IMG/VR virus record: IMGVR_UViG_3300013102_000030
Span: 32,001 to 96,000 of that record
Origin: a virus
Direction: 5' to 3' (one strand)
DNA: 64,000 nucleotides
Positions within the stretch are counted from its first letter, which is position 1, and each line of letters opens with the position of its first letter. Of the stretch, positions 51,926 to 54,952 are shown piece by piece. Below the pieces are notes generated by a model. That model searched no databases, was not told the origin of the DNA, and worked only from the letters and a program-made list of their open reading frames with translations. Made by a program: the position numbers and the translations under genes.

Positions 51926-51992
51926 ACACGAAGCGCTTGGGAAGAGTTACTTCTTTGGGTGAAATCACACTCTTGCCGTCTTTTTCTCGTGT
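51926..51992 (+). ncRNA. Y-RNA-like RNA 1 (minimal, 67 nt)
   Basis: P1 ACACGA/TCGTGT, GAAGCG, P2 AAGAG/CTCTT, TTACTTC, 3' TTCTC. Confidence 0.8.
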
Positions 51993-51997
51993 CTCCT

Positions 51998-52070
51998 AGG
52001 TTCGTAGCTCAATTGGTAGAGCGTCGGTCTCCAAAACCGAAGGTTGCAGGTTCAAGTCCTGTCGGGCCTG
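51998..52070 (+). tRNA. tRNA-Trp(CCA)
   Basis: Cloverleaf, anticodon arm TCGGT-CTCCAAA-ACCGA. Confidence 0.93.
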
Positions 52071-52074
52071 CAAG

Positions 52075-52102
52075 TTGACAAACTATAAATGTATGGTACA
52101 AT
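52075..52102 (+). promoter_or_regulatory. SigA-like promoter
   Basis: TTGACA-16-TACAAT with a TGG extension. Confidence 0.7.
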
Positions 52103-52154
52103 TGTACTGTAAAGACATGAAGACTCGCCGTCTAACGGACTCTTCATGTTGTAG

Positions 52155-52228
52155 CGGGGTGTAGCTCAGCTTGGTAGAGCGCCTGTTTTGGGAACAGGAA
52201 GTCGCAGGTTCAAATCCTGTCATCCCGA
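52155..52228 (+). tRNA. tRNA-Pro(TGG)
   Basis: CCTGT-TTTGGGA-ACAGG; acceptor CGGGGTG/CATCCCG. Confidence 0.93.
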
Positions 52229-52230
52229 CT

Positions 52231-52404
52231 TTGACCGAAGCGATTGAAAAAGATACTTCCAATGAACCAGTAATGTAAGTATCGGCCAAGGGGAAACTCT
52301 TGTCCCTAGTGTAGGAATCTTCCTACTTTGTTTTTCGTTTCACATGTAGTACCCTAGCAGTACCTAAAGCAGTACCCACTCTTTTTCAGGTATTTCTCGG
52401 TCAA
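52231..52404 (+). ncRNA. Y-RNA-like RNA 2 (174 nt, cargo with hairpins and three AGTACC repeats)
   Basis: P1 TTGACCGA/TCGGTCAA, GAAGCG, P2 TGAAAAAGA/TCTTTTTCA, TACTTC, TTCTC. Confidence 0.8.
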
Positions 52405-52411
52405 TCAAGTT

Positions 52412-52530
52412 TGAAAGAAGCGACGAAAACTGATACTTCGGAAACTATCAACTATTTATTGATTAGCGGTTCAATCCCGCAAACAGACCTTCCCGGTCTG
52501 ATAACCTCAGTTTTCACCTATTCTCTTTCA
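52412..52530 (+). ncRNA. Y-RNA-like RNA 3 (119 nt, three-hairpin cargo including a T-arm mimic)
   Basis: P1 TGAAAGA/TCTTTCA, GAAGCG, P2 GAAAACTGA/TCAGTTTTC, TACTTC; GCGG-TTCAATC-CCGC. Confidence 0.8.
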
Positions 52531-52534
52531 TTAT

Positions 52535-52607
52535 GCAGAAGTAGCTCAATTGGTAGAGCGCCTTCCTTCCAAGTAGGATGTTGCGGGTTCGAGTCCCGTC
52601 TTCTGCT
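52535..52607 (+). tRNA. tRNA-Gly(TCC)
   Basis: CCTTC-CTTCCAA-GTAGG; acceptor GCAGAAG/CTTCTGC. Confidence 0.92.
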
Positions 52608-52612
52608 CTAGT

Positions 52613-52684
52613 TACAGATGTGATGTTGTCGAGTTACTTCCAACTCTTATTCGAAACAACACTTGACACGCTCTGTTCTCTGTA
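52613..52684 (+). ncRNA. Y-RNA-like RNA 4 (minimal, 72 nt, directly upstream of ro60)
   Basis: P1 TACAGA/TCTGTA, variant GATGTG, P2 TGTCGAG/CTTGACA, TTACTTC, TTCTC. Confidence 0.75.
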
Positions 52685-52743
52685 CTAAGCTTTACACTGT
52701 TATCAGGTTCTCCTGAATTGAAAATGACGAAAGGTATATAATC

Positions 52744-54366
52744 ATGTCCAAGTACAACACTTCTTCTGCGCGTTCTCGCGCTGGTGTCGGCCCGATCAAG
52801 TCCGCACCTTCCACCAATCTTCGCACCTTTGAAGGTGCAACCGGCTTCGCTCGTGATGCCAAGTCTGAACTCTTCCTTGCCGCTGTCTCTGATTTCGGTG
52901 GAGAGGCAACTTTCTACGAGTCTGCCAGCAACCGCGCTGATCGTCTCAAGGGTCTTGCCCATGAGGTCGCTGTTCAGGATGCCGACTGGCTGACGAACTT
53001 CACTCAGTGGCTCCGCAACGAAGCCAACATGCGTACCGTCTCCCTCACCACTGCCCTTGAAGGTGCCAAGGCACTCAACAAGGCCGGTATTCCGGGTGGA
53101 CGCAAGCTGGTCTCCAACGCGATCCGTCGTGCTGATGAGGCCGGTGAAGCTCTCGCTTACTGGATGGCAAACAATGGTCGTAAGATCCCGTCTGCTGTCA
53201 AGCGCGGTATCGCTGATGGTGCTGTGAAGTCCTTCAGCGAGTACTCCCTTGCCAAGTACGACACGGCTTCCCACGGCTTCCGCTTCGGTGACGTGATCGA
53301 ACTGACCCACCCGTCTCCTCGGGACGAGAAGCAGTCCGACCTGTTCAAGTTCGCGCTTGACCGTCGTCGTGACGCTGCCGCAGAGCCTTCTGAGAACCTG
53401 ACCATGCTCCAGAAGCGTAAGGAATTCCTCGCGCTTTCTGACGCTGAGAAGCGTGAACTGGTCAACTCCGGTAAGGCTCTCGATGTCCTGTCTCAGGCTG
53501 GCCTGACGTGGGAGGTTCTGTCCTCTGCGTACGGTAAGGGTGGTCTCGATGCCAAGGGCTGGGAAGCAATCATCCCTTCCATGGGTTACATGGCTCTGCT
53601 CCGCAACCTTCGTAACTTTGAAGAGAAGGGCGTTTCTGACGCTGTTCTGGATCAGGTAGCTGCACGGATCTCCGATCCTGCTGAAGTTGCCAAGTCCCGT
53701 CAGCTTCCGTTCCGCTTCCTCGCGGCCTATCAGGCGAACAAGGGTTCCCTCCGCTTCGGCTACCCTCTGGAGAAGGCCCTCAAGGCTTCTCTGGAGAACG
53801 TTCCGGCTCTGGATGGCGATACCCTGATCCTCGTGGACCGCTCCATCTCCATGTTCGGTACCCTCTCCAAGAGCACTCAGTTGAACTTCGCTGACTCTGC
53901 TGCTCTGTTTGGTTCCGCCCTTGCTCTGCGTGCAGAGAAGGCTACTCTTGTGGCCTTTGGCGATAACTCCAAGGAGATCTCCTTCAAGCGCAGCGATTCG
54001 GTTCTCAAGACCGTTGAGCGCTTTGAGCGCATGGGTGGTACGATGACCTATGACGCTCTGGTGAAGCACTTTGATCCGTCAAAGCACACCCGTGTTGTCC
54101 TCATCACCGATGAGCAGGCAACCGGTGCGTACTACCGATCCACGGCAAACCGTGGCTGGGGATACCAGACCGTTCAGGGAGACATCCTTGATGCCATTCC
54201 TTCCACCATCCCGGCATACACTTGGAACCTCGCGGGTTACAGGGCCGGTCACGGTGAGTCCAAGACGAACCGAACCTATCTGGGTGGTTTGTCCGATCAG
54301 GCTTTCAAGCTGATCCCGCTCCTTGAGCGTGGATACGACGCTGGCTGGCCTTGGGAAGTCAAGTGA
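52744..54366 (+). CDS. rsr: Ro60 / TROVE-domain RNA-binding protein with C-terminal vWA domain
   Basis: TFEGATGF..ELFL..TFYE, LR.EANMRT, RADE.GE, LAKYD, MGYMALLRNLRN, SRQLPFRF, vWA MIDAS LVDRSISM and LITDEQ, WNLAGY. Confidence 0.93.
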   Translation: MSKYNTSSARSRAGVGPIKSAPSTNLRTFEGATGFARDAKSELFLAAVSDFGGEATFYESASNRADRLKGLAHEVAVQDADWLTNFTQWLRNEANMRTVSLTTALEGAKALNKAGIPGGRKLVSNAIRRADEAGEALAYWMANNGRKIPSAVKRGIADGAVKSFSEYSLAKYDTASHGFRFGDVIELTHPSPRDEKQSDLFKFALDRRRDAAAEPSENLTMLQKRKEFLALSDAEKRELVNSGKALDVLSQAGLTWEVLSSAYGKGGLDAKGWEAIIPSMGYMALLRNLRNFEEKGVSDAVLDQVAARISDPAEVAKSRQLPFRFLAAYQANKGSLRFGYPLEKALKASLENVPALDGDTLILVDRSISMFGTLSKSTQLNFADSAALFGSALALRAEKATLVAFGDNSKEISFKRSDSVLKTVERFERMGGTMTYDALVKHFDPSKHTRVVLITDEQATGAYYRSTANRGWGYQTVQGDILDAIPSTIPAYTWNLAGYRAGHGESKTNRTYLGGLSDQAFKLIPLLERGYDAGWPWEVK

Positions 54367-54377
54367 CTTTCCTCCTG

Positions 54378-54425
54378 CTCTTTCCGGTTGCTCTGGCTCT
54401 TTTGGGCTGGGGCAACCGGAAGGAG
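54378..54425 (+). terminator. Long hairpin after ro60
   Basis: CTCTTTCCGGTTGCTCTGGCTC-tttt-GGGCTGGGGCAACCGGAAGGAG. Confidence 0.7.
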
Positions 54426-54435
54426 ATGTGGTAAC

Positions 54436-54465
54436 TTGACCTCAGTCTGAGGACTGTGGTACAAT
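54436..54465 (+). promoter_or_regulatory. SigA-like promoter
   Basis: TTGACC-18-TACAAT with TGG; predicted +1 near 54471-54472, the start of Y-like RNA 5. Confidence 0.75.
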
Positions 54466-54470
54466 AGATT

Positions 54471-54579
54471 TACTGAAGCGCAGAGTAGAGTTACTTCATA
54501 TCATTCATGGTACGCCCTGTTGGAGGGTTTACGGGTTCAACTCCCGCGTAAAAATCTCTCTATTCGATTTTTCTCAGTG
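54471..54579 (+). ncRNA. Y-RNA-like RNA 5 (109 nt, cargo with a T-arm mimic)
   Basis: P1 TACTGA/TCAGTG, GAAGCG, P2 GAGTAGAG/CTCTATTC, TTACTTC; CGGG-TTCAACT-CCCG. Confidence 0.8.
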
Positions 54580-54581
54580 AT

Positions 54582-54655
54582 GCTTCCTTAGCTCAGTTGG
54601 CCAGAGCGGCGCTCTTGTAAAGCGTAGGTCGTCGGTTCGAATCCGACAGGAAGCT
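54582..54655 (+). tRNA. tRNA-Thr(TGT)
   Basis: GCGCT-CTTGTAA-AGCGT; acceptor GCTTCCT/AGGAAGC. Confidence 0.93.
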
Positions 54656-54658
54656 CTA

Positions 54659-54797
54659 GTCCAGAAGTGATAGATACCTGTTACTTCCTCTGTTAATGGA
54701 CGAGACCGTGGTTCGATTCCCGGATACCCCGCTTCATGGGGTATTAGTGTAATGGTTTAGCACTGTAAAATCACAGGGATCGCCTTTTTCTCTGGAC
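54659..54797 (+). ncRNA. YrlA-type Y RNA 6 (139 nt, circularly permuted tRNA-like domain)
   Basis: P1 GTCCAGA/TCTGGAC; T-arm (GGTTCGATTCC), closed acceptor-like stem ATACCCC/GGGGTAT, then D-arm GTGT-AATGGTTTA-GCAC. Confidence 0.88.
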
Positions 54798-54803
54798 AAA
54801 ATT

Positions 54804-54952
54804 TTGTGTGAAGTGTAAAGAAGAGTTACTTCTAACTCAAATCAGCGGGTCGCAGGTTCGAATCCTGTCACCTGACCGTTCGCGGTTGGGTGTAGCTCAG
54901 ATGGAAGAGCAGCCGACATCTAACAAGCCTCTTCTTGCTTGTTCTCACACGA
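54804..54952 (+). ncRNA. YrlA-type Y RNA 7 (149 nt, circularly permuted tRNA-like domain)
   Basis: P1 TTGTGTGA/TCACACGA, P2 AAGAAGAG/CTCTTCTT; GCAGG-TTCGAAT-CCTGT, CACCTGACC/GGTTGGGTG, TAGCTCAGATGGAAGAGC. Confidence 0.9.

Follow-up and report, generated by a model that had tools for sequence, protein, structure and literature searches.

The Ro60 locus of the virus in IMG/VR record IMGVR_UViG_3300013102_000030 raises the question of what the seven look-alike stretches are that surround its Ro60 gene and alternate there with tRNA genes. We analysed bases 32001–96000 of this complete 174-kb virus record (64,000 nucleotides (nt), here called the window, to which all coordinates refer unless another locus is named). 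A sequence-only reading had taken the seven stretches for Y-RNA-like genes built on a single scaffold and differing in their cargo, a claim that is supported by the covariation of their helices, by matches of a covariance model in other genomes and by the types of cargo that they carry. These comparisons showed a conserved family of predicted, modular RNAs that is tied to Ro60, and we consider it highly probable, taking the evidence together, that the seven are Y RNA genes of the YrlA/YrlB kind, with a candidate handle for Ro60 and with cargo directed toward host factors. The closest cultured relative is Arthrobacter phage Atuin, whose Ro60 (Ro-like) protein is 69.5% identical. The open reading frame (ORF) at the centre of the locus matches the TROVE domain (PF05731, E 9e-17, 61.8 bits, cut-off 23) and, slightly below the cut-off of 27, the vWA domain (VWA_2, 24.3 bits); its best relative of solved structure is the Ro60 of Thermus phage phiLo (PDB 9KOP, 9L5Y; E 7e-32).

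A scripted search recovered seven elements (E1 to E7; Table 1) in the layout and at the places first proposed for them, differing by no more than 1 nt. As had been described, four precede and three follow the Ro60 ORF, with tRNA-Trp, Pro, Gly, Thr and Phe in between; all seven lie on the Ro60 strand, at most 820 nt from the ORF, and are separated from the tRNA genes by gaps of 1–7 nt, the whole locus being embedded in a 22-tRNA array. The layout common to all seven is a first helix strand (P1), GAWGYG, a second helix strand (P2) with G as its 3' base, W-UACUUC, the cargo, P2', a pyrimidine tract, UYCUC and P1'. Its geometry is constant: P1 of 4–7 bp is followed by GAWGYG, 1–4 nt and P2 of 7–9 bp, which is closed by an invariant G:C directly before W-TACTTC, while the first base of P2' lies 13–14 nt 5' of TYCTC. 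The pattern GAAGYG-N4-20-TACTTC occurs eight times in the window (0.29 expected; none of 100 shuffles reached eight), and six of the eight occurrences cluster at the Ro60 locus on the + strand. The seventh element, E4, carries GATGTG instead, a variant that is also seen in two Atuin copies.

The sequences of P1 and P2 vary among the copies, yet they pair inside each copy, as the sequence-only reading had noticed. Self-duplexes of P2 have energies of -8.2 to -11.6 kcal/mol, as against a mean of -3.8 (standard deviation 2.3) for non-self combinations, the self partner is ranked first in 11 of 13 copies, and minimum-energy folding yields both helices in most copies. When 23 elements from four phages were aligned, 86.6% of P1/P2 cells were paired versus 53.5% in shuffles, the covariation score was 0.84 versus 0.20 in shuffles (slid controls, 0.20 at most) and 14 of 16 pairs were altered on both sides; fitting of this alignment to the model favours the structure, although invariant flanks anchor P1. 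The putative bulged-C helix (GA-AG against UU-C-UC) is built from near-invariant bases, so covariation is no test of it, and its A-to-U variant (GAUG) has no compensation on the 3' side. We also looked at the complementarity between GAAGYG and UACUUC, which produces a hairpin in the minimum-energy folds of E6 and of the Atuin copy A4, and rejected it as a conserved feature, since the GGUGCG, GAUGCG and GUUGCG of other clades are unable to pair with UACUUC.

What lies between the two halves of the scaffold differs from element to element: two bare hairpins (E1, E4), two cargos with a T arm (E3, E5), two permuted tRNA-like cargos (E6, E7) and one large non-tRNA cargo (E2). The apical loop of E1 reads UUACUUC-UUUGGGUGAAA, and its type also occurs in Atuin, in Streptomyces and Gordonia phages and at bacterial loci; the loop UUACUUC-UUUGGNGAAA is found again in Streptomyces and Gordonia phages and in bacteria. 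In E3 the middle hairpin is a T-arm look-alike (GCGGUUCAAUCCCGC), and the minimum-energy z of the element is -3.64. E6 combines a T-arm-like part, an acceptor-like stem and a D-arm-like hairpin (GUGUAAUGG), and E7 a T arm, an acceptor-like stem and a D arm (GUAGCUCAGAUGGAAGAGC), which is the permuted order of YrlA, while E3 and E5 have, of the tRNA parts, the T arm alone; none of the seven cargos has an anticodon arm. Within E2, the hairpin at 52311–52336 is terminator-like, with a U tract, and a comparison of four orthologues shows compensatory change at three of its pairs. On its 3' side, (G)YAGUACC is repeated three times (52349–52380).

If the scaffold belongs with Ro60, relatives with and without the Ro60 gene should be informative, and indeed the presence of elements follows that of Ro60. 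Atuin carries a Ro60 gene with six elements at corresponding positions, the orthologous pairs showing compensatory changes; its copy of E5, for instance, has a short cargo and two compensatory changes in P2 (GAGUAGAG/CUCUAUUC in E5, GAAUGAAG/CUUCAUUC in Atuin). Three metagenomic loci (L018, L019 and L020), with Ro60 proteins 75–80% identical to the present one, share the order E1, Trp, Pro, E2, E3, Gly, E4, Ro60, E5, Thr, E6, E7-like, Phe; L019 and L020 have seven elements each, and the L018 locus is cut short by the end of its contig; Atuin and these three loci have Ro60 with six to seven elements. All three keep the cargo of E2, with compensatory changes in its hairpins, and other cargo helices carry such changes as well. 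The clade holds eight orthologue groups, of which the Atuin A5 type is missing from the present phage, the E7 type from L019 and L020, and E2 and E4 from Atuin. The Arthrobacter phages Racecar, Mimi and Talia1610, on the other hand, keep the tRNA-Trp/Pro/Gly/Thr/Phe order and have no Ro60 gene, and in these three we found no match to the motif and none to the covariance model described below, the gaps between their tRNAs being 4–73 nt.

The covariance model (R1) was built solely from Arthrobacter-phage copies, those of the present phage and of Atuin. With filters off it gave exactly seven matches in the window, at 45–91 bits (next best, 12 bits), and no more than these seven in the whole 174-kb genome; every one is on the Ro60 strand and belongs to the Ro60 locus. 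Since R1 matches these seven by construction, the independent evidence comes from other genomes. Immediately upstream of Ro60 it found five full-length matches in Streptomyces phage GiJojo and four in Streptomyces phage BRock, and in Gordonia phage Neville there were three upstream of Ro60, to which a fourth was added by eye. Moreover, we found 88 matches across 41 IMG/VR viral Ro60 loci, with up to seven in tandem (locus L042), and 105 matches across 67 actinobacterial chromosomal Ro60 loci, one to four in each; the total is 193 matches in 108 other Ro60 loci, all on the Ro60 strand and nearly all within about 1 kb upstream of the Ro60 start codon. At bacterial loci the last element stops about 35–45 nt before that start. 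A strict motif search had given no match in the Streptomyces and Gordonia phages, so the covariance model was required; R1 itself had no match anywhere in the Nocardia genome that contains Ro60 locus L083, and tblastn of the phage collection found no mycobacteriophage Ro60. The consensus of 101 distinct elements is G-R-W-G-C-G-N-A-G, P2 with a final G, W-UACUUC and, on the 3' side, U-C-U-C-G, with UACUUC present in 99 of the 101. The proposed association of the scaffold with ro60 extends from Atuin to 108 further loci, and the elements are missing from the Ro60-less sister phages. At the same time, the implication that the scaffold is special to this phage was overstated, as it is a common handle beside actinobacterial and phage Ro60 genes, and the claim of an unusual array stands in part: seven is a large number, while arrays of four to seven occur in Streptomyces and Gordonia phages and on other viral contigs (five in GiJojo, four in BRock, seven in L042, five in L023).

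Some of these matches fall on annotated features. In GiJojo (L005, 2769–2843) a GenBank 'tRNA-Arg(cct)' for which the Rfam tRNA model gives no call lies inside an R1 match, and in Neville (L007, 2463–2873 and 2893–3000) the small coding sequences (CDSs) gp88-90 span three R1 matches; such GenBank features over Y-like elements in the two phages are probably misannotations. The annotated Ro60 start of Neville (2923) lies upstream of the onset of homology (3001), and the stretch between holds another GAUGCG...GUUACUUC, so that this start, too, is probably misannotated. BRock has, between two tRNA-Lys genes downstream of Ro60 (L006, 5079–5242), a match to the Rfam manA RNA of 49.7 bits (E 1e-9), as against a gathering score of 55.2.

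To which known RNAs the elements belong is less evident from Rfam, which at its gathering threshold reported tRNAs only, both in the window and in 19 related loci. The expectation that YrlA models would miss the elements was borne out: only E7 matches YrlA (RF02553), with 31.7 bits and E 5e-5 against a gathering score of 69, and the other six elements have no match to that model. Sub-threshold YrlA matches of 30–52 bits (E 1e-8 to 1e-2) are, however, nested in R1 matches in bacteria and phages, and since actinobacterial chromosomal loci also reach only 30–52 bits, the threshold of RF02553 shuts out the whole actinobacterial group. Because the weak YrlA matches sit within the scaffolds, we conclude that the seven elements are predicted Y RNAs of the actinobacterial type, of the YrlA/YrlB kind, which Rfam leaves unannotated at threshold, and the scaffold is, on the same comparative grounds, the putative common handle of Y RNAs adjoining Ro60 in Actinobacteria and their phages.

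Several points speak against this assignment, or against parts of it. None of the seven elements reaches the RF02553 gathering score. The Rfam YrlA model places its first helix on P2 rather than on P1, and its motif region on P2 and UUACUU. The published Rsr motif GNCGAAN0-1G is matched loosely, by CGAAG in E1 and E2 and by (A/U)GA(A/U)G in the other five; it may correspond to the end of P1 plus GAAG or, by the Rfam alignment, to the region after P2. The terminator-like hairpin and U tract of E2 precede the 3' strands of its scaffold, which, if termination there were efficient, could not form in full. Finally, E4 forms part of the leader of the Ro60 mRNA and might have a cis-acting role instead.

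Comparison with studied systems is consistent with the assignment. PNPase tethering by Y RNAs is documented in Deinococcus and Salmonella. The Salmonella rsr-yrlBA-rtcBA operon and the Deinococcus Rsr/Yrn1/PNPase system (RYPER) combine a terminal Ro60-binding stem with an effector module, a tRNA mimic or a PNPase tether, and are modular in the way the present elements are, although their GNCGAAN0-1G differs from the GAWGYG ... UACUUC ... UYCUC handle and, unlike the Salmonella operon with its rtcBA, the present locus has no adjoining RtcB or RtcA genes. Metazoan Y RNAs, too, pair their ends into a lower stem, above which an internal loop or bulge leads to an upper stem and a loop that varies, and a few paralogues have a single Ro60 site in common; they are transcribed individually by RNA polymerase III, in contrast to tRNA-punctuated operons, and the likeness is one of layout, with no sequence homology demonstrated.

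A close parallel is Mycobacterium smegmatis, in which Rsr binds two RNAs, the tRNA-like YrlA of 147 nt and the hairpin YrlB; their genes lie upstream of rsr, and a single precursor yields both. YrlA-like RNAs have also been reported in 22 phages (Chen et al. 2014, RNA 20:1715, PMC4201824). Judged from that published description and its probes rather than from direct alignment, the two loci agree in their actinobacterial lineage, in having several Y RNAs on the Ro60 strand just upstream, and in pairing a permuted tRNA-like type of about 147 nt (T arm, acceptor-like stem, D arm) with a hairpin or T-arm-only type, and by their probe sequences (PMC4201824) YrlA and YrlB would both have (N)ACUUC where it is to be expected. 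The present locus differs in that its RNAs number seven, as against two, and flank Ro60 on either side, in the real tRNA genes between them, and in the non-tRNA cargo of E2. Exact search of all genome contigs with the published M. smegmatis YrlA probe gave no match, and the YrlB probe gave none with up to three mismatches in 401 genomes of the family.

Thermus phage phiLo, like the present phage, encodes a Ro60 with adjoining Y-like RNAs: its Ro60 binds two of them (Yrl1 and Yrl2) and host PNPase in vitro, and the complex slows PNPase (NAR 2025, PMC12135203). The phiLo RNAs number only two and were picked from upstream sequence for their CGAA motif, unlike the elements described here. Two weak full-length R1 matches in phiLo (L126, 3490–3560 and 3679–3767; E 0.11 and 0.009) lie downstream of Ro60 on the same strand, outside the upstream region of the published Yrl1 and Yrl2; both overlap with an annotated CDS, phiLo_25, and each holds P1, P2 and GGGUACUUC, with CUUUCC on the 3' side. 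As a lead rather than a finding, phiLo may possess further or different natural Y RNAs.

Table 1. Features of the Ro60 locus in window coordinates (the promoter-like sites P1 to P3 are not to be confused with the helices P1 and P2)
Feature	Position	Strand	Description
Promoter-like site P1	51890..51919	+	TTGACA, 18 nt, TACAAT, TG extension; 11/12 consensus positions
E1	51926..51992	+	67 nt; predicted short-hairpin Y RNA, YrlB-like; R1 54.8 bits
tRNA-Trp(cca)	51998..52071	+	5 nt past E1; punctuation role in transcript proposed
Promoter-like site P2	52075..52102	+	TTGACA, 16 nt, TACAAT; precedes tRNA-Pro, E2, E3, tRNA-Gly, E4, Ro60
tRNA-Pro(tgg)	52155..52229	+	1 nt upstream of E2
E2	52231..52404	+	174 nt; non-tRNA cargo, three hairpins; R1 62.7 bits
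E3	52412..52530	+	119 nt; three-hairpin cargo; R1 80.7 bits
tRNA-Gly(tcc)	52535..52608	+	4 nt away from E3 and from E4
E4	52613..52684	+	72 nt; predicted short-hairpin Y RNA, GAUGUG variant; R1 45.4 bits
Ro60 (Rsr) homologue	52744..54366	+	540 aa, TROVE then vWA
Promoter-like site P3	54436..54465	+	TTGACC, 18 nt, TACAAT, TG extension
E5	54470..54580	+	111 nt; cargo a hairpin and a T-arm look-alike (CGGGUUCAACUCCCG); R1 79.3 bits
tRNA-Thr(tgt)	54582..54656	+	1–2 nt away from E5 and E6
E6	54659..54797	+	139 nt; YrlA-type; R1 76.7 bits
E7	54804..54952	+	149 nt; YrlA-type; R1 91.2 bits
tRNA-Phe(gaa)	54956..55031	+	3 nt past E7

The arrangement of the locus suggests how such RNAs might be made. Of its three strong sigma-70-like promoter sites, two put +1 on the first base of E1 and E5, in agreement with what had been predicted for them, E1 beginning 7 nt and E5 5–6 nt past the respective -10 boxes. 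Of the sequencing runs listed for the locus, none is catalogued as RNA. The three promoters would drive polycistronic transcripts of Y RNAs and tRNAs, from which tRNA end-processing would free most Y RNA ends, RNase P cutting at tRNA 5' ends and RNase Z or trimming acting at 3' ends. In the predicted RNA the ends pair (P1) and are followed by an asymmetric internal loop, with GAWGYG on the 5' side and the pyrimidine tract and UYCUC on the 3' side, beyond which P2, closed by G:C, would lead into the invariant single-stranded UACUUC. By analogy with known Y RNAs, and given its co-occurrence with the gene, this constant module may be the docking handle for the phage Ro60, while the variable cargo would lend each particle its own outward face, most likely recruiting or occupying host RNA-handling proteins, with PNPase as the partner known from bacterial and phiLo Y RNAs and proteins that bind the tRNA elbow as candidates for the YrlA types.

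Other small features lie close by. A hydrophobic 23-codon ORF (MTFLLLFPVALALLGWGNRKEMW; 54363–54434, + strand) has a GTG start that overlaps the Ro60 stop codon; Atuin and L018, L019 and L020 have single-helix-like micro-ORFs at the same overlapping position, and Gordonia phage Neville has a 31-aa 'membrane protein' immediately after Ro60. Between the second promoter and tRNA-Pro there is a 12-bp hairpin with one mismatch (CAUGAAGACUC ... GACUCUUCAUG; 52113–52145, + strand), which is not matched by R1 and for which L018 to L020 have no space. The far end of the 22-tRNA array holds a staphylococcal-nuclease homologue and a LigT-like 2H phosphoesterase, of an RNA end-healing family (61539–61940 and 61933–62379, + strand).

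The anticodon stem-loop is the usual target of anticodon nucleases, and the sequence-only reading had thought a use of the RNAs against tRNA-targeting host defences plausible. We think it unlikely that RNAs loaded on Ro60 act mainly as decoys or shields against tRNA-cleaving host defences, even though four of the seven cargos copy parts of tRNA, the locus lies inside a 22-tRNA array with a LigT-like 2H phosphoesterase at its end, and a survey of jumbo phages places Ro60 among RNA-repair genes (PMC7824862). The tRNA-like cargos have T, acceptor-like and D arms and no anticodon stem-loop, which weakens the idea, three cargos have no likeness to tRNA at all, and the same scaffold and cargo types stand beside chromosomal bacterial Ro60 genes, where an anti-defence role does not apply.

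The closeness of the elements to their neighbours could alternatively mean that the scaffolds are not stable trans-acting RNAs but signals acting in cis, by which the tRNA/Ro60 operon is processed or stabilised, or a leader through which Ro60 regulates itself: they lie 1–7 nt from tRNAs, E4 sits in the Ro60 leader, 59 nt from the start codon, and the stretch between the two has no convincing separate promoter, and the last element of bacterial loci ends about 35–45 nt before Ro60. This appears quite improbable to us, as the Ro60-less sister phages have the same tRNAs in the same order with no scaffold, bacterial Ro60 loci have the scaffold without surrounding tRNA genes, the cargo domains are conserved and covarying, and the M. 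smegmatis RNAs at the same genomic position are stable species bound by Rsr (PMC4201824). That the elements are functionless, as decaying tRNA-derived repeats or chance palindromes, is extremely improbable and already contradicted by the comparative data, for although several T arms look like the T arms of adjacent tRNAs and the minimum-energy z of short copies is unremarkable (E1 -0.87, E4 -1.02), the motif set is invariant, the helices covary, the order is conserved in relatives with Ro60 only 75–80% identical, and the model matches, spread over 108 independent Ro60 loci, never change strand or side.

Y RNA genes with a candidate Ro60 handle thus remain our preferred reading, and the locus represents no novel type of system but a large case, interleaved with tRNAs, of the partnership already known between Ro60 and Y RNAs. 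Loci with several Y RNAs and phages that combine Ro60 with Y RNAs are in the literature (Chen 2014, PMC4201824; phiLo 2025, PMC12135203), as is the modular handle-plus-effector design of Y RNAs; for arrays this large, for the interleaving with tRNAs and for the UACUUC motif we found no description in an incomplete literature search.

The functions of Y RNA effector modules are poorly understood, few bacterial Y RNAs having been studied, and this phage clade, in which seven to eight different modules share a handle, offers a test system. A model based on the handle, moreover, picks out about 200 elements in 108 loci that are left unannotated at the Rfam YrlA threshold, several of which now stand in annotations as tRNAs or small proteins. 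Atuin, cultured on Arthrobacter globiformis B-2979 and with six modules, can be set beside Racecar, Mimi and Talia1610, cultured on the same host strain and with neither Ro60 nor the RNAs, which makes a ready comparison for the benefit of the Ro60 particle. As a speculation that we consider less likely than not, the nearly invariant G-W-UACUUC atop P2 and the GRWGCG loop may form a hitherto undescribed core of a Ro60 docking site in Actinobacteria, in their phages and possibly in phiLo, which large phages would have expanded into exchangeable sets of seven to eight effector RNAs, excised from tRNA operons by tRNA processing and each directing Ro60 to a different host factor. If this were true, the gain and loss of RNAs among close relatives would reflect adaptation to their hosts.

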